Under the pieces are notes generated by a model, which was given only the letters and a program-made list of their open reading frames with translations, had not been told where the DNA came from and ran no database searches. 64,000 bases of DNA from Mobula hypostoma (Eukaryota): NCBI RefSeq assembly GCF_963921235.1, contig NC_086097.1:112408001-112472000 (forward strand). The letters run 5' to 3'. Every line of letters begins with the position of its first letter. Within the stretch, counting starts at the first letter, position 1. A program made the translations under genes and the position numbers. Below, piece after piece: positions 6,141 to 47,184 of this stretch.

Positions 6141-6691
6141 CATGAGGTTAATAATGTTGTTTGTAATAATAGTAGGATTATTAATGTAGTGTTGAGTGAG
6201 TAAGACCATAAATTCTGTATTATTTCTAGAACTTCCTTCCTTGAAGAGGAGAAGTTATGTATGAGTAGGATCTTGCTTAGACCAACCTGAAATATCAATT
6301 ATACTGTTTTGGAGGGGGCATAATCTTTATGAATGGCAGAATATATTTAAGTGGATTAATTGCAGGCTCTTATTCTGTATTCTTGTTTTTTTTGTCTCTT
6401 CATTAAGGATATTGACAGACTTGAGAAACTGCAAATAAAGGTTTTGAGGTTTAATAACAAAGTGGAAAGGCTACTTTCTTCGGGGAAAAGAAAACATATG
6501 CAAAACTGTTTGGGGTAAAGGTTTAAGCTGGAAATTTCTTAATAATTTTATGGATATCAGTGACATTAAAATATCCACAAAATTTCATGATAAAAACAAG
6601 TTTAATTTGATTATCTCAGGTGTGGAATGTGTGACGAGCGACACTTGGAGGTTGCCCCCAGCATATCCTGAGGCTGTTTTGGATGTTAGCA

Positions 6692-8425
6692 CATAGAAAC
6701 ATAGAAACATAGAAAATAGGTGCAGGAGTAGGCCATTCGGCCCTTCGAGCCTGCACCGCCATTTATTATGATCATGGCTGATCATCCAACTCAGAACCCC
6801 GCCCCAGCCTTCCCTCCATACCCCCTGACCCCCATAGCCACAAGGGCCATATCTAACTCCCTCTTAAATATAGCCAATGAACTGGCCTCAACTGTTTCCT
6901 GTGGCAGAGAATTCCACAGATTCACCACTCTCTGTGTGAAGAAGTTTTTCCTAATCTCGGTCCTAAAAGGCTTCCCCTCTATCCTCAAACTGTGGCCCCT
7001 CGTTCTGGACTTCCCCAACATCGGGAACAATCTTCCTGCATCTAGCCTGTCCAAACCCTTTAGGATCTTATATGTTTCAATCAGATCCCCCCTCTATCTT
7101 CTAAATTCCAGCGAGTACAAGCCCAGTTCATCCAGTCTTTCTTCATATGAAAGTCCTGCCATCCCAGGAATCAATCTGGTGAACCTTCTTTGTACTCCCT
7201 CTAAGGCAAGGATGTCTTTCCTCAGATTAGGGGACCAAAACTGCACACAATACTCCAGATGTGGTCTCACCAAGGCCTTGTACAACTGCAGTAGTACCTC
7301 CCTGCTCCTGTACTCGAATCCTCTTGCTATGAATGCCAGCATACCATTCGCCTTTTTCACCGCCTGCTGTACCTGCATGCCCACTTTCAATGACTGGTGT
7401 ATAATGACACCCAGGTCTCGTTGCACCTCCCCTTTTCCTAATTGGCCACCATTCAGATAATAATCTGTTTTCCTATTTTTGCCACCAAAGTGGATAACTT
7501 CACATTTATCCACATTAAATTGCATCTGCCATGAATTTGCCCACTCACCCAACCTATCCAAGTCACCCTGCATCCTCTTAGCATCCTCCTCACAGCTAAC
7601 ACTGCCACCCAGCTTTGTGTCATCCGCAAACTTGGAGATGCTGCATTTAATTCCCTCATCCAAGTCATTAATATATATTGTAAACAACTGGGGTCCCAGC
7701 ACTGAGCCTTGTGGTACCCCACTAGTCACCGCCTGCCATTCTGAAATGGTCCCGTTTATTCCCACTCTTTGCTTCCTGTCTGCTGACCAATTCTCCACCC
7801 ACATCAATACCTTACCCCCAATACCATGTGCTTTAAGTTTGCACACTAATCTCCTGTGTGGGACCTTGTCAAAAGCCTTTTGAAAATCCAAATATACCAC
7901 ATCCACTGGTTCTCCCCTATCCACTCTACTAGTTATATCCTCAAAAAATTCTATGAGATTCGTCAGACATGATTTTCCTTTCACAAATCCATGCTGACTT
8001 TGTCTGATCATTTCACCGCTTTCCAAATGTGCTGTTATCACATCCTTGATAACTGACTCCAGCAGTTTCCCCACCACTGACGTTAGGCTAACCGGTCTAT
8101 AATTCCCCGGTTTCTCTCTCCCTCCTTTTTTAAAAAGTGGAGTTACGTTAGCCACCCTCCAATCCTCAGGAACTAGTCCAGAATCTAATGAGTTTTGAAA
8201 AATTATCACTAATGCATCCACTATTTCTTGGACTACTTCCTTAAGCACTCTAGGATGCAGACCATCTGGCCCTGGGGATTTATCTGCCTTCAATCCCTTC
8301 AATTTACCTAACACCACTTCCCTACTAACATGTATTTCGCTCAGTTCCTCCATCTCACTGGACCCTCTGTCCCCTACTATTTCTGGAAGATTATTTATGT
8401 CCTCCTTAGTGAAGACAGAACCAAA
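6692..8425 (-). mobile_element. Young CR1 LINE, 5'-truncated (RT domain, 3'UTR, (TTTCTATG)n tail)
   Basis: ORF 7094..8353(-) 419 aa with KSPGPDG, YLDFQKAFDKV, GVPQGSVLGP and KFADD; near-identical to the copies at 25.2, 36.7, 38.7 and 41.6 kb; premature TAG at 7094-7096. Confidence 0.97.
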
Positions 8426-25170: not shown

Positions 25171-28100
25171 GGGATCCGGGATATTTCTGATCGTGTCCAA
25201 GATATCCTGAAGTGGGAGGGTGAGGAGCCAGAGGTCGTGGTACATATAGGTACCAATGACATAGGTAGGAAAAGGGATGAGGTCCTGAAAGGAGAATATA
25301 GGTAGCTAGGAAGGGAGTTGAGAAAAAGGACCGCAAAGGTAGTAATCTCGGGATTACTGCCTGTGCCATGCGACAGTGAGAGTAGGAATGCGATGAGGTG
25401 GAGGATAAATGCGTGGCTGAGGGATTGGAGCAGGGGGCAGGGATTCAAGTTTTTGGATCATTGGGACCTCCTTTGGCGCAGGCGTGACCTGTACAAAACG
25501 GACGGGTTACACCTGAATCCTAGGGGGACCAATATCCTGGCAGGGAGATTAGCGGGGGCCAGTGAGGTGACTTTAAACTAGAATGGTTGGGGGGTGGGAA
25601 TCAAATTAAAGAGGCTAGGCGTGAGGAGGTTAATTCACAACAGGGGGATGGAAACCAGTGCAGAGAGACAGAGGGGTGTAAAGTGAGGGTAGAAGCAAGA
25701 AGTACTAAGGAGAAAAGTAAAAGTGGCAGGCCGACAAGTCCAGGGCAAGCATTAAAAAGGGCCACTTTTCAACATAATTGTATAAGGGCTAAGAGAGTTG
25801 TAAAAGAGCGCCTGAAGGCTTTATGTGTCAATGCAAGGAGCATTCGTAATAAGGTGGATGAATTGAAAGTGGAGATTGTTATTAATGATTATGATGTAGT
25901 TGGGATCACAGAGACATGGCTCCAGGGTGACCAGGGATGGGAGCTCAACGTTCAGGGATATTCAATATTCAGGAGGGACAGACATGAAGGAAGGGGAGGT
26001 GGGGTGGCGTTGCTGGTTAAAGAAGAGATTAACGCAATAGAAAGGAAGGACATAAGCCGGGAAGATGTGGAATCATTATGGGTAGAGCTGCGTAACACTA
26101 AGGGCCAGTAGACGCTGGTGGGAGTTGTGTACAGGCCACCTAACAGTAGTAGTGAGGTCGGAGATGGTATTAAACAGGAAATTAGAAATGTGTGCAATAA
26201 AGGAACAGCAGTTATAATGGGTGACTTCAATCTACATGTAGATTGGGTGAACCAAATTGGTAAAGGTGCTGAGGAAGAGGATTTCTTGGAATGTATGGGG
26301 GATGGTTTTTGAACCAACATATCGAGGAACCAACTAGAGAGCAGGCTATTCTGGACTGGGTTTTGAGCAATGAGGTTAATTGGAAGGGTTAATTAGCAAT
26401 CTTGTTGTGAGAGGCCCCTTGGGTAAGAGTGACCATAATATGGTGGAATTCTTCATTAAGATGGAGAGTGACATAGTTAATTCAGAAACAAAGGTTCTGA
26501 ACTTAAAGAGGGGTAACTTTGAAGGTATGAGACGTGAATTAGCCAAGATAGACTGGCAAATGACACTTAAAGGATTGACGGTGGATATGCAATGGCAAGC
26601 ATTTAAAGGTTGCATGGATGAATTACAACAATTGTTCATCCCAGTTTGGCAAAAGAATAAATCAAGGAAGGTAGTGCACCCATGGCTGACAAGAGAAATT
26701 AGGGATAGTATCAATTCCAAAGAAGAAGCATACAAATTAGCCAGAGAAAGTGGCTCACCTGAGGACTGGGAGAAATTCAGAGTTCAGCAGAGGAGGACAA
26801 AGGGCTTAATTAGGAAGGGGAAAAAAGATTATGAGAGAAAACTGGCAGGGAACATAAAAACGGACTGTAAAAGCTTTTATAGATATGTAAAAAGGAAAAG
26901 ACTGGTAAAGACAAATGTAGGTCCCCTGCAGACAGAAACAGGTGAATTGATTATGGGGAGCAAGGACATGGCAGACCAATTGAATAATTACTTTGGTTCT
27001 GTCTTCACTAAGGAGGACATAAATAATCTTCCAGTAATAGTAGGGGACAGAGGGTCCAGTGAGATGGAGGAACTGAGCGAAATACATGTTAGTAGGGAAG
27101 TGGTGTTAGGTAAATTGAAGGGATTGAAGGCAGATAAATCCCCAGGGCCAGATGGTCTGCATCCTAGAGTGCTTAAGGAAGTAGCCCAAGAAATAGTGGA
27201 TGCATTAGTGATAATTTTTCAAAACTCGTTAGATTCTGGACTAGTTCCTGAGGATTGGAGGGTGGCTAATGTAACCCCACTTTTTAAAAAAGGAGGGAGA
27301 GAGGAACCGGGGAATTATAGACCGATTACCCTAACGTTGGTGGTGGGGAAACTGCTGGAGTCAGTTATCAAGGATGTGATAACAGCACATTTGGAAAGCG
27401 GTGAAATGATCGGACAAAGTCAGCATGGATTTGTGAAAGGAAAATCATGTCTGACGAATCTCATAGAATTTTTTGAGGATGTAACTAGTAGAGTGGATAG
27501 GGGAGAACCAGTGGATGTGGTATATTTGGATTTTCAAAAGGCTTTTGACAAGGTCCCACACAGGAGATTAGTGTGCAAACTTAAAGCACACGGTATTGGG
27601 GGTAAGGTATTGGTGTGGGTGGAGAATTGGTCAGCAGACAGGAAGCAAAGAGTGGGAATAAACGGGACCTTTTCAGAATGGCAGGCGGTGACTAGTGGGG
27701 TACCGCAAGGCTCAGTGCTGGGACCCCAGTTGTTTACAATATATATTAATGACTTGGATGAGGGAATTAAATGCAGCATCTCCAAGTTTGCGGATGATGC
27801 GAAGCTGGGTGGCAGTGTTAGCAGTGAGGAGGATGCTAAGAGGATGCAGGGTGACTTGGATAGGTTGGGTGAGTGGGCAAATTCATGGCAGATGCAATTT
27901 AATGTGGATAAATGTGAAGTTATCCACTTTGGTGGCAAAAATAGGAAAACGGATTATTATCTGAATGGTGGCTGATTAGGAAAAGGGGAGGTGCAACGAG
28001 ACCTGGGTGTCATCATACACCAGTCATTGAAAGTGGGCATGCAGGTACAGCAGGCGGTGAAAAAGGCGAATGGTATGCTGGCATTTATAGCGAGAGGATC

Positions 28101-28729
28101 CGAGTACAGGAGCAGGGAGGTACTACTGCACTTGTACAAGGCCTTGGTGAGACCACACCTGGAGTATTGTGTGCAGTTTTGGTCCCCTAATCTGAGGAAA
28201 GACATCCTTGCCATAGAGGGAGTACAAAGAAGGTTCACCAGATTGATTCCTGGGATGGCAGGACTTTCATATGAAGAAAGACTGGATGAACTGGGCTTGT
28301 ACTCGTTGGAATTTAGAAGATTGAGGGGGGATCTGATTGAAACGTATAAAATCCTAAAGGGATTGGACAGGCTAGATGCAGGAAGATTGTTCCCGATGTT
28401 GGGGAAGTCCAGAACGAGGGGTCACAGTTTGAGGATAAAGGGGAAGCTTTTTAGGATCGAGATTAGGAGGAACTTCTTCACACAGAGAGTGGTGAATCTG
28501 TGGAATTCTCTGCCACAGGAAACAGTTGAGGCCAGTTCATTGGCTATATTTAAGAGGGAGTTAGATATGGCCCTTGTGGCTATGGGGGTCAGGGGGTATG
28601 GAGGGAAGGCTGGGGCGGGGTTCTGAGTTGGATGATCAGCCATGATCATAATAAATGGCGGTGCAGGCTCGAAGGGCCGAATGGCCTACTCCTGCACCTA
28701 TTTTCTATGTTTGTATGTTTCTATGTTTC
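25171..28729 (+). mobile_element. Young CR1 LINE: ORF1 3' half (SGNH esterase) plus full-length but disrupted ORF2 (APE-RT)
   Basis: ORF1 motifs HIGTND, SGLLP, DGLHLN; ORF2 motifs NARSIRNK, ITETWL, GDFN, SDH and RT. Lesions: TAG 26109-26111, frameshifts ~26310 and ~26378, TGA 27973-27975. Confidence 0.97.
26380..27975 (+). pseudogene. CR1 ORF2 reverse transcriptase fragment (531 aa open)
   Basis: Longest ORF in the track; carries the core non-LTR RT motifs. Confidence 0.95.
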
Positions 28730-29822: not shown

Positions 29823-30145
29823 AAAGCAACACACGCAAATTCTGGAGGAACTCAGCAGGTCATGGAAATGAATAAATGGTCCATGTTTTGGGCCAAAGCC
29901 CTTCATCAGGATTGGAAAGGAAGGGGGATGATGCCGGGGGAGGAAGGGGGAGAGGGGAAGGAGGCTAGCTGGAAGGTGATAGGTGAACCCAGGTGGGTGA
30001 GAAAAGTCAACAGCTGGAGAAGAAGGAATCAGATGGGAGAGGAAAGTGGACCATAGGAGAAAGGGACCCAGGGCAAGTGATAGGCAGGTGAGGAGAAGTA
30101 GAAGGCCAGAGTGGGAAATAGAGGAAGAGGGGAGGGATTTTTAAA
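29823..30145 (-). mobile_element. Penelope-type non-autonomous terminus with a decayed hammerhead
   Basis: Homologous to 46723-46822; the minus strand has CTGATGA-stemII-AAAA (GAAA core mutated). Confidence 0.65.
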
Positions 30146-34796: not shown

Positions 34797-35075
34797 ACAC
34801 AAGGAAGTCTGCAGATGCTGAAAATCCAAAGCAACACAAGCAAAACGCTGGTGGAACTCAGCAGGTCAGGCAGCATCTATGGAAATGAATAAAGAGTCGA
34901 TGTTTTGGGCTGAGGCCCTTCATCAGGACTCCTGATGCTGGAAGTTCTGCAAATGCTGGATGTCCTGAAGAATACACACAAAGTGCTGGAGGAACTCAGC
35001 AGGTTGGGCACCATTTATGCCTTTCCATAGATGCTGCCTAACTTGCTGAGTTCCTCCAGCACTTTGTGTGTGTTA
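34797..35075. mobile_element. Compound Penelope-type termini forming short palindromes
   Basis: 34797-34935 is a PLE tail with a decayed minus-strand hammerhead; 34974-35071 is a hairpin (acacacaaagtgctggaggaactcagc ... gctgagttcctccagcactttgtgtgt). Confidence 0.7.
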
Positions 35076-35079
35076 CTGT

Positions 35080-35755
35080 TTGTGAAATTAATTTTACTTT
35101 ATTTCGAAAGGTAGATGAACTGTAATACCAACCTATGATGACTACACCTAGACCATCTTTGTTTAATTTGCACCACATTTCTTCAAAGAATGGTTGTATG
35201 GGAAAATACATTATCATTTTTGCAATGGGAATGAAAATTCCATTGAGCGTTAGGTTGGCACATGCTGAAAGGATCCCTGGTTGAATTTTGGAGTGACATG
35301 AAATGAACCCCAAGTGGTTGTCAGGGCCATTTGCATTAGGAAAAAAATGATTTCTAACTGGATAATGCTGAAATAAACAGCATTATGCAAATGGGTTTTT
35401 GGAGCAGAGGGAACATGTTGCACAAGACACTGTGTAGAGTTTATGTGCATTTGGAATGAGTACATTAATCTTCAGTGCAGAAGGCAAACGGATTATTTGA
35501 ACACTGCCTGGCTATGCTCTCAGTGACGCACATGCACCAGTGAAAAAACAGAGCTGATTGCTAACCTATTTCAACCACTTAAAAACCTTTCCTGGTAGCG
35601 GTAGAAGAGAAAAACATGACATCCATAAATAAAGATAATAAAAAGTGTACACAGTCATCCATCATCATTCCAGGTACTCTGATAATTGAACATGCTATAT
35701 AAATTAGTATTACAGTTCATCTACCTCACAAACTATAGTAAAATAAATTGCACAA
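35080..35755 (-). other. Long-range inverted repeat (arms 35080-35136 and 35699-35755), putative intronic RNA duplex
   Basis: 20-bp perfect core (35109-35128 / 35707-35726); 52 of 57 ungapped positions pair in minus-strand RNA, 5 of them G-U. Confidence 0.7.
35566..35591 (-). CDS. Candidate 26-nt alternative exon encoding a short C-terminus (G/R)KVFKWLK*
   Basis: Minus strand acceptor 'tgtttttctcttctaccgctaccAG', donor 'tag|GTTAGC', downstream TGCATG at ~35531-35536; enclosed by a long RNA duplex. Confidence 0.45.
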
Positions 35756-36710: not shown

Positions 36711-37204
36711 AGGTTCACCAGATTGATTCCTGGGATGGCAGGACTTTCATATGAAGAAGGACTGGATGAACTGGGCTTGTACTCGTTGGAATTTAGAAGA
36801 TTGAGGGGGGATCTGATTGAAACGTATAAAATCCTAAAGGGATTGGACAGGCTAGATGCAGGAAGATTGTTCCCGATGTTGGGGAAGTCCAGAATGAGGG
36901 GTCACAGTTTGAGGATAAAGGGGAAGCCTTTTAGGATCGAGATTAGGAGGAACTTCTTCACACAGAGAGTGGTGAATCTGTGGAATTCTCTGCCATAGGA
37001 AACAGTTGAGGCCAGTTCATTGGCTATATTTAAGAGGGAGTTAGATATGGCCCTTGTGGCTACGGGGACCAGGGGGTATGGAGGGAAGGCTGGTGCAGGG
37101 TTCTGAGTTGGATGATCAGCCATGATCATAATAGATGGCGGTGCAGGCTCGAAGGGCCGAATGGCCTACTCCTGCACCTATTTTCTATGTTTCTATGTTT
37201 CTAT
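36711..37204 (+). mobile_element. Young CR1 3' fragment
   Basis: Near-identical to 28231-28729; (TTTCTATG)n tail. Confidence 0.97.
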
Positions 37205-37869
37205 TTTAGTTTTTATATTTTCCGATAATTTTCCTTATTTTGACATTACGCTATGTAAATATAGGTCCTCTGTGCAATACATTAAATGTTGTTCATACAA
37301 AATCTTGTCAGTAATTCAGCTAGCAAGGGTATAGTTATTAGAACATCTTACATCAAAAATCTCACCTTAATGTTATATAGATTATGTACAGTACATAATC
37401 TACAGATTCAGAATAGAGTCAATGTAAATTCTGTCTTTATTATCAATTGCAGTGAGCCACACAATGACACTTGTGTGGAAATTTTGGAAGGAAAACTTAT
37501 TACAATAGAAATTTCCCTGTGCTCACAACAGACACATGGGATGGGACTTTAATTTTTGTTGATCTGGATTCTTCAACTCTTATTCCTAAGGCAACAACAT
37601 CCTCACTGACAGACCTGTACGGTGCCAAGGTCAAATGCTCATAATTACCCTCCTATGGGGAGAACAAGCCATACCTCTAAACAGGTGAATTAAACTTTGA
37701 CATCCAAATAATCACCTCTCTTCCTGTCACCTCTCCCACCTCTCTGGCTCAGCTCTTGCCAAGCCTACCAAAAACCATGAATCATTGGAAATGTTCAAAA
37801 TCAATTAAAAATCAAGTAATTCAAAAGATACAATCACTAAAAGTTGAAAAAAAAACAAACATCAACTAA

Positions 37870-38035
37870 ACGTGAGAAAGTTTGCAGATGCTATAAATGT
37901 AAAGCATGAGACAATGAAGAGCCTCAGCCCGAAACATTGACTGTTTACACTTTTCCATAGACGGTGCCTGACCTACTAAGTTCCTCCAGCATTTTGTATG
38001 TGTTCCTTTGGATTTCCAGCATCTGTCATGTCTAT
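37870..38035 (+). mobile_element. Penelope-type terminus, decayed
   Basis: 'atgaagagcctcagcccgaaacattgactg...gttcctccagcattttgtatgtg...ttccagcatctg'. Confidence 0.6.
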
Positions 38036-38687
38036 GATACTACTGTGATACTACTACTACTAAGGAAGTCTCCTCAAGGGATGCCCAGCCTGAAGAAGTT
38101 AAGTCACCCAAAAAGACATTAATGGACTTAGATAGGTACAAAAATACAAAACACTGTTTAATCTGCACAAGTATGAGGTGATTCATTTGGGGAAAGCAGA
38201 AAAGGTAAGTGGAAAACTATAAAGAGATCTTGGAGTACAAGTGAATTTCACTACACAGGAGCCAAGACAGAGAGAGTGGTAAAGTTTAAAAGGCAAGTCT
38301 TGGGGCTTGCTTGGGAGTTTCACTTTGTAGCACACTATAAAAGAGGTACCGTAAGTTTGCAAATTGATACTTAACAGTTGATTGACTAATTAGCCAATAA
38401 AAATAAGGTAGAGTCAAAAAGAGCAGCCATTTTTTGAGTGACCATTCTAGGAGTGGAGAGTTGAGGCTTTGGAGTGACTTAAAGGAGGCAAGATTGTAAA
38501 TTGCTACTTATTAGTTGATTGGCTCATTAGCTAATCAACAACAATCAATAAAAAAAAACAAACAAACACTACAACTATGAACTGTGAATTGCGTCTATAT
38601 GATTCTCCACCAGAAAGAGTCGAGGTATTCAAGTTTTTCAGGTGTCTGGTTTGATGAAAGACTTACTTGGAGGGTTCATATAGACAA

Positions 38688-40310
38688 AACATAGAAACAT
38701 AGAAACATAGAAAATAAGTGCAGGAGTAGGCCATTCGGCCCTTCGAGCCTGCACCGCCATTTATTATGATCATGGCTGATCATCCAACTCAGAACCCCGC
38801 CCCAGCCTTCCCTCCATACCCCCTGACCCCTGTAGCCACAAGGGCCATATCTAACTCCCTCTTAAACATAGCCAATGAACTGGCCTCAACAGTTTCCTGT
38901 GGCAGAGAATTCCACAGATTCACCACTCTCTGTGTGAAGAAGTTTTTCCTAATCTCGGTCCTAAAAGGCTTCCCCTCTATCCTCAAACTGTGACCCCTCG
39001 TTCTGGACTTCCCCAACATCGGGAACAATCTTCCTGCATCTAGCCTGTCCAAACCCTTTAGGATATTATATGTTTCAATCAGATCCCCCCTCTATCTTCT
39101 AAATTCCAACGAGTACAAGCCCAGTTCATCCAGTCTTTCTTCATATGAAAGTCCTGCCATCCCAGGAATCAATCTGGTGAACCTTCTTTGTACTCCCTCT
39201 AAGGCAAGAATGTCTTTCCTCAGATTAGGGGACCAAAACTGCACACAATACTCCAGGTGTGGTCTCACCAAGGCCTTGTACAACTGCAGTAGTACCTCCC
39301 TGCTCCTGTACTAGAATCCTCTTGCTATAAATGCCAGCATACCATTCGCCTTTTTCACCGCCTGCTGTACCTGCATGCCCACTTTCAATGACTGGTGTAT
39401 AATGACACCCAGGTCTCGTTGCACCTCCCCTTTTCCTAATCGGCCACCATTCAGATAATAATCTATTTTCCTATTTTTGCCACCAAAATGGATAACTTCA
39501 CATTTATCCACATTAAATTGCATCTGCCATGAATTTGCCCACTCACCCAACCTATCCAAGTCACCCTGCATCCTCTTAGCATCCTCCTCACTGCTAACAC
39601 TGCCACCCAGCTTCGTGTCATCCGCAAACTTGGAGATGCTGCATTTAATTCCCTCATCCAAGTCATTAATATATATTGTAAACAACTGGGGTCCCAGCAC
39701 TGAGCCTTGCGGTACCCCACTAGTCACTGCCTGCCATTCTGAAAAGGTCCCGTTTATTCCCATTCTTTGCTTCCTGTCTGCTAACCAATTCTCCACCCAC
39801 ACCAATACCTTACCCCCAATACCGTGTGCTTTAAGTTTGCACACTAATCTCCTGTGTGGGACCTTGTCAAAAGCCTTTTGAAAATCCAAATATACAACAT
39901 CCACTGGTTCTCCCCTATCCACTCTACTAGTTATATCCTCAAAAAATTCTATGAGATTCGTCAGACATGATTTTCCTTTCACAAATCCATGCTGACTTTG
40001 TCCGATCATTTCACCGCTTTCCAAATGTGCTGTTATCACATCCTTGATAACTGACTCCAGCAGTTTCTCCACCACCGACGTTAGGCTAACCGGTCTATAA
40101 TTCCCCGGTTTCTCTCTCCCTCCTTTTTTAAAAAGTGGGGTGACATTAGCCACCCTCCAATTCTCAGGAACTAGTCCAGAATCTAACGAGTTTTGAAAAA
40201 TTATCACTAATGCATCCACTATTTCTTGGGCTACTTCCTTAAGCACTCTGGGATGCAGACCATCTGGCCCTGGGGATTTATCTGCCTTCAATTCCTTCAA
40301 TTTACCTAAC
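38688..40310 (-). mobile_element. Young CR1, 5'-truncated, inserted in the Nimb element
   Basis: ORF 39311..40312(-) RT; tail (catagaaa)n at 38690-38713; same TAG as the 6.7-kb copy, here at 39092-39094. Confidence 0.97.
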
Positions 40311-40766
40311 AATTGGAAAGTGTGAGAAAATTTTAAATATTATGAGAAGTATTGCTGGATGCGACTGGGGAGCAAGGTGGGAAACTATGTACTTAATATA
40401 TCTAGCTATGATTAGATCAGTTATAGATTATGGTTGTATTGTTTATGGTTCCGCTGCTATGGCAGTGCTTGGAAAACTAGACACTGTGCAGTCCAAAGCA
40501 CTTAGACTCTGTTGTGGAGCTTTTAGAACAACATCAGTCCCAGCATTATGTGTGGAGATGGGAGTTAAGACGAATTTAAGACAAATTCAGTTGGACCTGC
40601 AGTATTGGGTAAAACTAAATGGATTCAGTCACAGCTGTCCATCAAAGTGTCTTTTGCAGGGGAAGTCGGAGCACCAAAGTAAAATTAAAAGATACCCATT
40701 TTTAGATTTGGTTAATAACTGGGCTGTGAAATTGAAACTGACTGAGGAAGACATAGTTGACCAAAT

Positions 40767-41387
40767 TTGCTTGCCACCCATCCCTTTTTGGCTCTTTCCA
40801 GAACCAGAAGCAGACCTATTCCTCCTTTTTCAGCTTCAGGGAAGCATGCAATTTCATCAGCGTTGATCACAAATGAATATTTAAATAATAAATGGGAATC
40901 TTATCTGAAGATTTTTACTGATGGCTCAGTGGACCCAGAGAGCAGTAGGGCAGGATTTGGGATGTATGTGCCTCAACTTGGAGTTAATATTGGTCACCGG
41001 GTTTCAGATGGTGTTTCTGTCTTTGCAACAGAATTATTAGCAATCCTCTGGGCCTTATGGTGGATAGAAGACTCTCGACCACGTAGGGTTATCATCTGTT
41101 CGGATTCTGCTGCTGCCTTCAAGTCTATAAAAGGGAGTAAATCAAAAGCTCGTCCTGACATAGTTATTGAGATTCTCTTAGTGTTGTTTAGAGTAGGGAA
41201 GATGGGTTGTGCAGTTAGACTTTCATGGATATCTGGGCATGCTGGGGTGGAGGGAAATGAAATTGTGGATGGCATTGCAAAGTCTTTCTTACCGAGCAGG
41301 CAAGTAGAAATTAGAGTTCCCCTAGGCAGAGCAGAATTGAGAAGTAGGATTAAAAAAGGTATAGAGAAGAAGTGGCAGGAGGATTGA
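40767..41387 (+). pseudogene. RNase H domain of the I/Nimb-clade ORF2
   Basis: Catalytic D-E-D-D residues in KIFTDGS, ATEL, CSDS and GNEIVD; frameshifted from ORF 40342..40866. Confidence 0.88.
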
Positions 41388-41609
41388 AAAAATGAATAAA
41401 GGGGCAAGCATTATTTTTCTAGTCACCCACTAGTTAAAAAGGTCGCAGACTGTTACCTTTTAAGTCGTAGAGATATGGTGAAATTAACAAGACTTAGGTT
41501 GGGGCATTGGGGGCTAAACTATTATTTAAAGATAATAGGAAAACATCCTACTGGATTATGTGACTGTGGTAGTCCAGAGACAGTGCAGCATGTTTTGCTG
41601 AGCTGTAAT

Positions 41610-42253
41610 CATAGAAACATAGAAACATAGAAAATAGGTGCAGGAGTAGGCCATTCGGCCCTTCGAGCCTGCACCGCCATTTATTATGATCATGGCTGAT
41701 CATCCAACTCAGAACCCAGCCTTCCCTCCATACCCCCTGACCCCTGTAGCCACAAGGGCCATATCTAACTCCCTCTTAAACATAGCCAATGAACTGGCCT
41801 CAACAGTTTGCTGTGGCAGAGAATTCCACAGATTCACCACCCTCTGTGTGAAGAAGTTTTTCCTAATCTCGGTCCTAAAAGGCTTCCCCTCTATCCTCAA
41901 ACTGTGACCCCTCGTTCTGGACCTCCCCAACATCGGGAACAATCTTCCCGCATCTAGCCTGTCCAATCCCTTTAGGATCTTATACGTTTCAATCAGTTCC
42001 CCCCTCAATCTTCTAAATTCCAACGAGTACAAGCCCAGTTCATCCAGTCTTTCTTCATATGAAAGACCTGCCATCCCAGGAATCAATCTGGTGAACCTTC
42101 TTTGTACTCCCTCTATGGCAAAGATGTCTTTCCTCAGATTAGGGGACCAAAACTGCACACAATACTCCAGGTGTGGTCTCACCAAGGCCTTGTACAACTG
42201 CAGTAGTACCTCCCTGCTCCTGTACTCGAATCCTCTCGCTATAAATGCCAGCA
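41610..42253 (-). mobile_element. Young CR1 3' fragment inserted in the Nimb element
   Basis: ORF 41709..42254(-) is open to the natural stop; tail (catagaaa)n. Confidence 0.97.
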
Positions 42254-43714
42254 TTGTTCAAGAGGCTATCTGGCTTAAATTTATTTTGGTTTTCTATTAA
42301 ATCTTTGTTTGGCCATCAAGAGAATCAACATCTAATTGAAGAGTCTATCATTCAGTTTATACGTGAGACTAGGTTGTATTCGAGAATTTGAGTTCCTTGA
42401 TGTTCTATAATTAATTATATATCCTGCGGAGGGCTGTAATACGCCTAGATGCGTCTAAACAGCCGGAAATAGAAGAAGAACACTACAACTATTTTTTTCT
42501 GACCAGTCATTGTAGGAGCAGAAAGTTGAGGCTTTGGTGTGAGGAGGCACAGGTAAACTTTTGTTTTGCTGTAATCCTTAGTATTTGATTCAGTGTAAAC
42601 TGGATAGTGTTTAGGACAGTGGATGCTTCTTCAAAATCTGAGAGTCAGATAACCTTATGGTCTCCCTGATTACTACATTTGTAGGAAGTTCACCCAGCTG
42701 CAGCTCCTGAGAAACTGCCCAGGGACTGGGAATGGAACTGGAAGTGGAATTTGAATATACTCTAGAATATCTGAGAACATAATGGGTGAGATTTTTACTG
42801 AGTTAGTCATATCCATGGCACAAGTTTCAGATAGATTGGTGACCACTTGAAAAATTAAGAGAAGTGGGCAATTAATGCAAAGTTCCACTGAGGACATTTC
42901 CTGTACTAATAGGTATATTTCTAAAGATACAAGCAAATATGATATGGGTAGAACAAGGGATGAGTTCCTGCAGATTCAGTATAGGGAGTTAAGTAAGAAG
43001 TTAAGAAGCAGGACTGAAAGGAGTAATCCACTGGTCACTACCCAGTTGCTATGTGTTAGTGAGGTCTGAAATAGAGGGATAAGCCAGTTGAGTTTGTGAT
43101 TGAGGAGCTGGTGCTGGGACACCAGACAGGACCAACATCCTTGCCGGGAAATTTGCTAATGCTGCATGGGAGAGCTTAAACTAGTACTGCAGGCTGGCGA
43201 GACTCTGAACAGGAGCAAGTCATGAGATAAAACGGTAGCCAATTGTAATTGGGTTAGACAGCTTTAGAGTACTAGCAGAGAAATGAATGCCCAGTTAAAC
43301 TGAATTTTGTTTCACCTGAAAAGGTTTAACATGCAAGGAAGCTGAGCTTGAAGTGTGGGCTGGCCCAGAGAACTGTTGTAGCCAGAAAAGAAGCATGGCT
43401 GAGAGAAGGACAGAATTAGCAATTCATTTTCCCAGGTGTAGACACTGCAGGTATGACAGTGATACAGGTAAACAGGAAGGACTGTTGCCTTTTTAATGAG
43501 GGAGAAGATAACAGCAGAGGTTAGAGACACATCCTTGTGAGATCATCCAATGTGCTTCCAAGAACTTGGAACTAGAACTTGGTAACAAGGGAGGATCGCT
43601 CTGGTAGACCCCACCACACCTGAATAGTCATGGAAACTTGAGCTAGTGTGAGGAGAAAATGGTCATAATTGTAAAAATAAGAGATGCATTAGTGGGAGAT
43701 TTTAATTTCCCCTA

Positions 43715-44859: not shown

Positions 44860-46345
44860 TATAGCTGGGGTGGTAATGGGATAAGCTACTGCTTCCTATC
44901 AAATGTTCCCAAATAGTACCTCAAATAGCCGCTGACAAGTCCAACTCCTGCCCTGCATGTGTGATTTAACTACTAAATGCAGCAAAATTTTCTACTGAAA
45001 GGAGGAGCAAAGTTGGGTTACTGACACCTTAACCAGTGATTTCAAGCAGATGGGGCAATCAGTCATGGTTAGTGGCTCATTGAGGAGAAAGAAAACTGAT
45101 CTCAAACTTCCATTGCCTTGCGGTTACATCCATTGATGGGGAAGTCTTTGAGATTAAACCCCATAGAAAAATCTGGACCTGGAGTCTCTAAGGGAGTTGT
45201 ACATTGAGTTCAACGCTGATTGGTAACTCCTGTGATTCAACCCGTGCCAAGCAGTATCAACCTCTGCCACTCCTTTGGATTCATCAGCTTTGTGGAGAGA
45301 AGGAGCCTGCAGCACTGGGTCTCCACAGGGGACTGTCTTGTCTCCCTTTCTCTTCACCATTTACACCTCGGACTTCAACTACTGCACAGAGTCTTGTCAT
45401 CTTCAGAAGTTTTCGGATGACTCTGCCATAGTTGGATGTATCAGCAAGGGAGATGAGGCTGAGCACAGGGCTACGGTAGGAAACTTTGTCACATGGTGTG
45501 AACAGAATTATCTGCAGCTTAATGTGAAAAAGACTAAGGAGCTGGTGGTAGACCTGAGGAGAGCTAAGGTACCGGTGACCCCTGTTTCCATCCAGGGTGG
45601 GCAGTGTGGAGGATTACAAATACCTGGGGATACGAATTGACAATAAACTGGACTGGTCAAAGGACACTGAGGCTGTCTACAAGAAGGGTCAGAGCCGTCT
45701 CTATTTCCTGAGGAGACTGAGGTCCTTTAACGTCTGCCGGACGATGCTGAGGATGTTCTACGAGTCTGTGGTGGCCAGTGCTATCATGTTTGCTGTTGTG
45801 TGCTGGGGCAGCAGGCTGAGAGTAGCAGACACCATCAGAATCAACAAACTCATTCATAAGGCCAGTGGTGTTGTGGGGATGGAACTGGACTCTCTCACGG
45901 TGGTGTCTGAAAAGAGGATGCTGTCTAAGTTGCATGCCATCTTGGTCAATGTCTCCCATCCACTACATAATGTACTGGGTGGGCACAGGAGTACATTCAG
46001 CCAGAGACTCATTCCACCCAGATGCAGCACAAAGCGACATAGGAAGTCATTCCTGCCTGTGGCCATCAAACTTTACAACTCCTCCCTTGAGGGGTCAGAC
46101 ACCCTGAGCCAATAGGCTGGTCCTGGACTTATTTCCTGGCATAATTTACATATTATTATTTAACTATTTATGGATCTATTACTATTTATTATTTATGGTG
46201 CAACTGTAATGAAAATGAATTTCCCCCAGGATCGATAAAGTATGACTATGACTATGCATACTCCATATCGTGTTATTCTGGCTTGCGTATCATGTAGACG
46301 GTTGGGACACAATAGCATGGTCAATCCTAACCAGTAGAGGGCCTC
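44860..46345 (+). mobile_element. RTE-like non-autonomous element, interrupted by Rex1
   Basis: Non-CR1 sequence splitting the CR1 RT between 'AFKVL' (~44840) and 'ggtctcatggtgggctggtctggaa' (~46348). Family assignment is inference. Confidence 0.5.
45308..46256 (+). mobile_element. Rex1/Babar LINE, 5'-truncated, young
   Basis: STGSPQGTVLSPFLFTIYTSDF, QKFSDDSA, YKYLG, RLYFLRRLRSF, SHPLH, SFLPVAIKLYN; (tatgac)n tail; one frameshift ~45600. Confidence 0.92.
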
Positions 46346-46784
46346 AGGGTCTCATGGTGGGCTGGTCTGGAAAACTAGGACATGTGGAATCTGCAGAGCG
46401 CTAAATGGGTAATTCAAAATTGACCCGGTGGTGATGGATCAGGGTTGTTTCTCAGAATGGCGGCCAGTAACTAGTATGCCACAGCAGTCAGTGTTCGGGC
46501 ACTTATTCTTTTACAAAGGATTGCATGCAAATCTTAAGGCTTGATCAATTCGATGATGTAATTGAATTTGGTGTTGATGATGAAGATGATCATAGTATTT
46601 ATTTGCTATCCTTGCCACCAGCTAGAAATCGCAGAGGTTTACCAGCACTATCTTAAACCAGAGTAACATCCCTTTAATTAAAAACAAAAACAACAGGAAT
46701 TCTGCAGATGCTGGAAATTCAAGCAACATACATCAAAGTTGCTGGTGAACGCAGCAGGCCAAGCAGCATCTATAGGAAGAGGCG

Positions 46785-46822
46785 CAGTCGACGTTTCAGG
46801 CCGAGACCCTTCGTCAGGACTA
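46785..46822 (-). ncRNA. Minimal type I hammerhead ribozyme motif (mirror copy)
   Basis: Exact reverse complement of 47004-47041. Confidence 0.75.
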
Positions 46823-47003
46823 ACTGGGATCCTTAGAAGGTCCAAATTGAGAGGCTTGGAATCGAATCCTAAAGCCAACTGGAGTAAGTTGGTGACGGAG
46901 GCACGTTCCAAAAAAGGATATATGGCTGTGACATCAACTTACTCCAGTTGGCTTTAGGATTCGTTTCCAAGCCTCTCAATTTGGACCTTCTGAGGATCCC
47001 AGT

Positions 47004-47041
47004 TAGTCCTGACGAAGGGTCTCGGCCTGAAACGTCGACTG
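47004..47041 (+). ncRNA. Minimal type I hammerhead ribozyme motif
   Basis: tagtc-CTGACGA-a-gggt(ctcg)gcct-GAAA-C-GTC^-gactg; helix III is replaced by palindromic ACGT, as in PLE hammerheads. Confidence 0.75.
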
Positions 47042-47184
47042 CGCCTCTTCCTATAGATGCTGCTTGGCCTGCTGCGTTCACCAGCAACTTTGATGTATGT
47101 TGCATCCCTTTAATTAATTTGTGTTAACCCCGCTTTTTCTGGCAAACGATCATCACAAGTAATAGTCTGTACCTTCCTTTTGGA

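Follow-up and report, generated by a model that had tools for sequence, protein, structure and literature searches.

A young head-to-head Penelope-like element insertion with the same ORF-skipping join in both arms

The hairpin at 46667..47117 of the window (the whole 64-kb stretch of DNA that was analyzed) is, on balance, best explained as a young insertion that holds two head-to-head copies of the 3′ end of a Penelope-like element (PLE) of the Neptune type; both of these arms were likely reverse-transcribed from one short RNA that likely carried the start of the ORF pre-joined to the ribozyme, possibly through splicing. While the inverted layout of PLE copies is known, the occurrence of the same ORF-skipping join in both arms appears to be new, and this shared join is a natural mark of the template. 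The initial annotation of this DNA did not include the join, which, judging from the assembled sequence, occurs only in these two arms. The parts of the insertion are as follows, with parent coordinates counted in the sense of the parent element from the first base of helix I (window 47003), which is taken as position 0:

46667..46681, plus strand: left target site duplication (TSD), 15 bp, AT-rich; an exact repeat, with the contig of a relative leaving the match at 46681
46682..46722, minus strand: PLE tail, parent +101..+141, in the left arm only; placed by comparison with the parent, the one-sided tail being the family pattern
46723..46823, minus strand: pLTR part of the left arm, parent 0..+100; 99-100% identical to young family copies
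46785..46823, minus strand: minimal type I hammerhead with a predicted cut after 46790; mirror of the plus motif, duplex-paired in the folded prefix
46824..46827, minus strand: ORF-skipping join of the left arm, parent +407 to 0, with 4-nt ambiguity; the skipped part has GT..AG ends
46824..46931, minus strand: parent ORF 5′ segment, +300..+407 (about ORF nt 129-236); 46892-46931 is unpaired loop
46932..46934, no strand: center junction of the two 5′-truncated arms, 3 nt, untemplated or mutated; placed by comparison with the parent
46935..47002, plus strand: parent ORF 5′ segment of the right arm, +340..+407, with the same join at its end (46999-47002)
47003..47041, plus strand: minimal type I hammerhead with a predicted cut after 47036; its 28-nt core lies at 47000-47027
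47003..47102, plus strand: pLTR part of the right arm, parent 0..+99, ending at the tail-less end
47103..47117, plus strand: right TSD, an exact repeat

The 15-bp direct repeat described in the initial annotation is exact at 46667-46681 and 47103-47117, with 421 bp between its two copies, and the proposed arms (46723-46891 and 46935-47103) are indeed 169 bp long with two mismatches (46834 and 46862); the last arm base, 47103, doubles as the first base of the TSD. The lengths given for the loop (43 nt) and the tail (41 nt) are also right, but the loop has to be read differently, as the 40 surplus ORF bases of the longer arm plus three junction bases. The arms had moreover been taken to be non-coding in origin, and 108 nt and 68 nt of them derive from the parent ORF. 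As RNA, the unit folds into a single rod (-369 kcal/mol, z = -40), a stability equaled by 0 of 100 shuffles; a rod far beyond shuffles is expected for any near-perfect inverted repeat. Each strand carries a hammerhead as had been claimed (CUGACGA..GAAAC-GUC, helix I UAGUC/GACUG; 47003-47041 on plus, 46785-46823 on minus), and the cut predicted after 47036 on the plus strand was correctly placed. At the sequence level, the motif has the conserved core, short helix I, missing helix III and palindromic 15.2-16.2 positions by which the available text of Cervera and De la Pena (2014; PMC4209133) defines minimal type I hammerheads of PLEs. An Rfam scan of the unit gave no hammerhead match, only sub-threshold hairpin miRNA/sRNA models. 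The element contains 16 CpGs.

The presence of only two arm differences and an intact TSD points to a recent event, in line with the young age suggested earlier. In the related organism B, a contig matches the left flank over 432 bases (9 differences) as far as 46681 and then continues with 45 letters unlike the element, which may represent an empty site. A contig of organism A enters the PLE tail at the left junction. Joints between the left flank and the pLTR, for example 46659->46722 (organism B alone) and 46299->46689 (both organisms), were assigned to other loci, since these flank bins have raised depth. An assembly artefact would be an extremely improbable origin of the palindrome. Although no single contig spans the whole stretch and such structures are described as troublesome for assemblies (Craig et al., 2021, PMC8557442, available text), the exact TSD, the two arm mismatches and the family-typical ends argue against an artefact, as does a short-read contig identical to 46250-46705, which crosses the left junction and has 24 letters on its shorter side. 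The join is also present in a DNA run, possibly of the assembled sample and hence not independent.

No host gene was shown around the site, and the long ORFs of the 64-kb window read as retroelement fragments. For instance, at least five young LINE 3′ ends with long RT frames, 95-98% identical (6691-8425, 26992-28728, 36711-37216, 38687-40311 and 41607-42257), lie in the window and are presumably CR1-like. At 45579-46115, a frame of 178 aa matches Pfam ALKBH8_N and precedes a short tandem tail; we take it to be most likely a LINE 3′ end and not a host exon. In two overlapping frames at 40243-41387 one sees, by eye, what looks like the end of the RT together with the RNase H of a different non-LTR element.

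The arms are 94-100% identical to the pLTR and ORF of loci L006 and L096, and a search of the same genome with the unit yielded 1,598 candidates, of which the 40 that were scored gave 55 matches. The parent is displayed by L006, L008 and L096: a tandem 3,523-bp element with an RT + GIY-YIG ORF and a hammerhead in its pLTR, whose Pfam matches (RVT_1, E 1.7e-5; GIY-YIG, E 3.5e-4) are both below the curated cut-offs. The arm identity to an element with these matches bears out the PLE origin that had been proposed. Between RT and EN the parent ORF reads CKRNKCYTC, a CX4CxxC linker; a zinc-finger-like CX2-5CxxC linker at this place is given as the mark of the Neptune clade in the available text of PMC8557442, and by this motif the parent is classified as a Neptune-type EN+ PLE. 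Its ORF appears to start about 170 nt past the ribozyme. The 28-nt ribozyme core (47000-47027) has 46,540 exact matches in the genome, against 0 for a control. Older relatives of the same hammerhead pLTR, 72-85% identical, lie elsewhere in the window (34802-35131, 37916-38025 and 29823-29911), including a decayed inverted pair at 34971-35074. Many copies also have an antisense frame of 130-220 codons through the pLTR (L006:1231-1818 and the matching part of L007, L008, L019 and L020), which may be due to chance.

The layout of the insertion is that of an EN+ PLE, with an inverted 5′-truncated partner, a tail at one end and a TSD. An inverted truncated copy with a one-sided 30-40-bp tail is typical of PLEs according to the accessible part of Craig et al. 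(2021; PMC8557442), and in the family studied here the tail is on one arm only in 31/32 inverted pairs, 26 of which have a TSD of 12-16 bp, in a sample enriched for such pairs. Among the first 30 unselected core matches in the genome, 13 have an inverted partner; by extrapolation, insertions with hammerheads on two strands should number in the thousands. A hairpin with two ribozymes is ordinary for PLEs, and the hammerheads on both strands, real as they are, do not represent the special ambisense design that had been suspected; with 13/30 core matches partnered in this way, they are a by-product of head-to-head integration. With canonical EN+ PLE insertions, as the available text of PMC8557442 and of Arkhipova et al. 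(2013; PMC3846280) describes them, the window unit shares the head-to-head arms with 3′ ends outward, the tail on one arm, the TSD, the pLTR hammerhead and the Neptune-type Cys linker. It differs from them in that both arms skip the ORF via one shared join, whereas those texts describe microhomology deletions and intron retention. The two arms of an insertion usually share a source, as differences at diagnostic sites amount to 10% between arms of one insertion vs 44% between insertions, and 17 of the 32 scored pairs are identical at these sites (15 differ).

How two such arms could form is suggested by in vitro work on the PLE protein Poseidon PAc of Anolis carolinensis, which cuts and extends both strands and begins reverse transcription at two internal positions, one at each end of the tail (Frangieh et al., 2024; PMC11167929, available text). 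PAc resembles the present case in its two 3′ ends about 40 nt apart, in the cutting and extension of both strands and in its AT-rich target, and we count as a further likeness that its RNA needs the first ~170 nt of the ORF. On the other hand, PAc belongs to another clade, the ORF here would start about 170 nt after the ribozyme, and the accessible portion of that report describes no ORF-skipping or rolling products.

In one of its two interpretations, the initial annotation saw the unit as a PLE-mobilised element without coding capacity, with ambisense ribozymes and a rod-like RNA of viroid or retrozyme type; a family of this kind, with hammerheads working on both strands, we now regard as very improbable. 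This explanation has in its favor an intact motif on both strands and the rod-shaped fold. However, the copy-number comparison of the unit with the genome, which had been suggested as a check, found a single copy and not a family, the defining join being confined to its own two arms, and this already largely refutes it. There is also just one motif per strand and no tandem unit, so that no unit-length RNA could be excised. In a folded transcript prefix that ends at the motif, its 39 bases all pair with the opposite arm, on either strand, and the isolated hammerhead fold reaches -5.8 kcal/mol vs -11.2 kcal/mol for an alternative, no better than shuffles. Single minimal hammerheads did not cleave in the experiments covered by the available text of Cervera and De la Pena (2014; PMC4209133), and the PAc motif required its protein (PMC11167929, available text). 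Both hammerheads are thus modeled as probably silent, sequestered in the duplex.

In viroids and HDV-like rod RNAs, which replicate as circles, transiently folded ribozymes cut multimers of both polarities. The window unit has in common with them the rod fold and a ribozyme motif in each polarity; here, however, the rod results from the perfect inverted repetition of one motif within chromosomal DNA, is bounded by a TSD and present once, and is not a circular ambisense replicon. Metazoan non-LTR retrozymes (Cervera and De la Pena, 2020, PMC7229834; Li, Clavereau and Pollet, 2026, 10.64898/2026.07.22.740005, both as far as accessible) likewise derive from PLEs, are non-coding, measure a few hundred nt per unit and contain a type I hammerhead. 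They differ in forming multi-copy non-autonomous families of head-to-tail tandem hammerhead units, where the window unit is an inverted single copy with one motif on each strand, and their circles are described as closed at the ribozyme cut site, while the joins found here lie elsewhere. The window unit is a member of the canonical PLE insertion class, neither retrozyme nor viroid-like.

In each arm, parent position +407, inside the ORF, is joined directly to position 0, skipping 3,115 bases (~3.1 kb). The join search returned the two arms as exact matches and two unrelated one-mismatch matches, vs three in the reversed control; no second independent insertion with this join is present in the assembly at one mismatch. 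For the ORF site itself there are 786 exact matches; in a sample of 30, the sequence continues normally in 29, and the 30th is the window element. The skipped segment ends GT..AG (L096 joint 1397->4513, CT..AC as read there) and the breakpoint has 4 nt of microhomology. The donor is tied for the best consensus match among the 53 GT sites examined, and the acceptor is preceded by a pyrimidine tract and a branch-point-like motif. The same spot, the 5′ end of helix I, is where the Penelope intron of D. virilis ends (PMC4209133, available text).

With such ends and plausible splice signals, the segment would qualify as SpIRE-like. Like the SpIREs of LINE-1 (PMC5860796, as far as accessible), the unit is a dead-end retroelement copy without an internal GT-AG segment; it differs in that the element class is another one, the splicing is putative, and PLEs are noted for intron retention, to which this join, if a splice, would be an exception. 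GT..AG ends have a chance of 0.2-0.6% per random join, and thus about 12% of arising at least once in 42 joins. The join did not appear in contigs of three runs guessed to be RNA and was seen only in a DNA run; contigs of this sort show presence and not absence. Two other ORF-skipping joints, landing 2 nt inside the motif and without GT donors, occur in the contig set of organism B. No sense ORF exon lies upstream of the same acceptor in any of 30 copies that start there (30 of 281 matches examined), all of which are inverted partners or truncations into host or other repeat DNA.

Two other observations on the join were set aside. A pile-up of family 5′ ends at this point in a first BLAST was a selection effect, as most unselected copies run on into the 3′ UTR. 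A native intron comprising the whole 3′ UTR, with its donor at the stop codon, was rejected since the family copies examined read GC there and not GT. Separately, older-subfamily copies (L081, L084 and L086, at ~1480-1510) have a perfect branch-point heptamer and a pyrimidine tract just before the hammerhead, which suggests a maintained splice acceptor, the best upstream donor match lying at -622.

We also searched the genome with gap patterns from an ORF anchor to the ribozyme (gaps of 10-192 nt). These gave 47 matches, which after removal of four that do not skip the ORF (L156, L159, L171 and L181) and six second hits represent 37 insertions with joins after +353. A second, control anchor at +607 gave seven matches (five joins and two unrelated), for a total of 42 insertions. 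Over the same gap range the +607 anchor found five joins vs 24 insertions for the +342 anchor, with similar conservation of the anchors (26/30 and 28/34 copies, mostly young), a 5-fold excess that is only a hint. Landings after +14, and with them the ribozyme cut site (+34), lie outside the reach of both searches, as do donors before +342.

Donors of the 37 joins lie at +361..+519, with 28 at +361..+389, and those of the second anchor at +775..+787. Landings are at -140..-100 in 22 of the 37 (10 of them at -120..-122) and at -12..+12 in eight, in addition to the five control-anchor joins. The ten at -120..-122 (L175, L182-L187, L189, L196 and L199) fall where a pyrimidine run begins, which may be a site of transcription initiation or of RT pausing, and the five control-anchor joins (L201-L205, +775..+787 to 0..+5) form a second narrow donor cluster. 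Junctions are blunt in 17 cases, carry extra bases in 12 and show 1-4 nt of microhomology in eight, no more than random pairs do; microhomology was measured against one young reference, which lowers the values for older copies. GT..AG ends are found only in the window join among the 37 that were mapped, and by eye in none of the five control-anchor joins. Since 12 other joins land within -12..+12 of the same edge without splice ends, this edge is a hotspot regardless of splicing.

Twelve of the 37 insertions repeat their own join, in both arms in eight and in tandem in six, and the unit sizes of the class range from 369 to 519 nt. In L174, L178 and L192 the join is crossed twice and the copy stops 10-77 bases later, as rolling copying predicts; later unequal crossing-over gives this pattern less easily. 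Not every case needs a pre-joined template, as in five two-armed insertions (L157, L162, L163, L180 and L186) the partner arm runs past the landing point without a join and the arms of L194 carry different joins. Several insertions end close to where the join lands. Certain joins (363/-121, 365/-121 and 389/-121) are found at 2-3 separate loci, which fits ordinary copying from joined source loci. The class is therefore probably of mixed origin, with contributions from RT jumping at pause sites, from RNAs that were joined beforehand and from secondary copying of loci that already carry a join.

For the window insertion, we propose the following course of events, beginning with the tandem 3,523-bp RT + GIY-YIG element with its pLTR hammerhead as the parent. 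By analogy with the in vitro work on PAc, the protein would nick both strands 15 bp apart at an AT-rich site, and cDNA would be primed at two sites of the RNA, the tail end and a point ~40 nt earlier, yielding a tailed and a tail-less arm with 3′ ends outward. Both arms contain the join between +407 and the hammerhead edge, break off at +300 and +340 and are fused to each other, presumably through the two truncated cDNA ends. The template would have been a pre-joined unit of ~408 nt (about 0.4-0.5 kb). As for the origin of its join at this locus, we divide the weight about evenly between a spliced or back-spliced PLE RNA and a ligated or end-jumped short RNA, the latter resembling the RNAs that would underlie the other 41 insertions with ORF-skipping joins. 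R2-type RTs are known to jump end to end. The product is predicted to be a dead hairpin with sequestered ribozymes, which would form dsRNA if read through, like thousands of sister insertions.

The main rivals of this scheme are snap-back copying and a missing source locus. In the former, the join would be a single RT template jump in the first arm, and the second arm would have been copied from the cDNA by snap-back or overwritten by later gene conversion; we consider this rather unlikely. The 4-nt microhomology at the join, the identity of the arms over 100 pLTR bases and the weak pairing that closes the loop are in its favor, and self-priming has been proposed for PLE palindromic junctions (PMC3846280, available text). 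Nevertheless, the second arm stops exactly at the tail-less end without copying through the tail, the centre bases allow at best 2/3 terminal priming pairs, and in L157 the tail-less arm has +1..+11, which is missing from its other arm. Further evidence against copying of one arm from the other comes from the 15 of 32 scored family pairs whose arms differ at a diagnostic site and from private variants, which occur in one arm 116 times vs seven times in both, though many of these will be post-insertion. A snap-back product of PLE reverse transcription had been the alternative offered in the initial annotation. A reverse transcription product remains the preferred explanation, but two RT starts are favored over snap-back, as the second arm has the tail-less terminus typical of the family (31/32 pairs) and thereby matches the two in vitro RT start sites (PMC11167929, available text).

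Alternatively, the join could have arisen first in DNA, as an internally deleted PLE or a short PLE nested in an ORF, and been mobilised in trans, with the source since lost, polymorphic or unassembled. We view this as unlikely too, if a shade less so than snap-back or conversion. Nested PLE-in-ORF insertions are known in this genome (short copies at L181:1522-1748 and L202:1679-1773 within the ORF of another same-family copy, and probably L203), some joins recur at 2-3 loci, and in run X1 the contig with the join (the L096:1397-4513 joint) has a depth of 112 vs ~15 for the unique flanks, which could mean extra, unassembled copies. However, other single-looking joints in X1 have depths of 104-125, and the value of 112 is probably due to contig averaging. 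No source locus is present in the assembly at one mismatch, and since most of the 37 joins are distinct, many sources would need to be missing.

Beyond the two-start scheme with a pre-joined RNA, we tentatively suggest a broader route, which we would not yet rate as probable. PLEs here may make circular or end-rejoined RNAs of 0.37-0.52 kb that contain the ribozyme, both RT starts and the protein-binding 5′ stretch of the ORF, closed away from the ribozyme cut and, in the window unit, by back-splicing to an acceptor conserved with Drosophila Penelope. A PLE dimer would copy these RNAs round and round into both arms, so that retrozyme-like repeats could be born in a single integration, and the locus would be a spliced PLE insertion. 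By analogy, this route resembles the first step of the circular-template model of Cervera and De la Pena (2014; PMC4209133, available text), who proposed more-than-unit reverse transcription from ligated PLE circles. Their metazoan PLE hammerheads have the same minimal motif, and a splice acceptor at the 5′ end of helix I was noted for D. virilis; their circles, in contrast, are full-length and closed at the cleavage site, whereas the units here measure 0.37-0.52 kb and have heterogeneous joins.

The accessible parts of PMC4209133 and 10.64898/2026.07.22.740005 list as open questions by what means tandem and inverted PLE insertions form, whether circular RNA takes part and how PLEs give rise to the retrozymes of animals; the second of these texts suggests local tandem amplification as a route to retrozymes. 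In the literature covered, mainly openly accessible main texts, we found no description of joins repeated within PLE insertions; Repbase entries, for example, may hold one. The 42 insertions, with 12/37 repeating their own join, provide defined junction sequences and templates for RNA and in vitro work on PLEs, and pre-joined short RNAs may represent a birth step of small ribozyme-bearing, retrozyme-like repeats. Four other insertions of the class, L157 (G000:C12:82.796 Mb), L172 (C66:31.114 Mb), L174 and L192, contain 2-3 head-to-tail hammerhead units of 0.4-0.5 kb, in outline the tandem arrangement of retrozymes, and are candidate newborn retrozymes.
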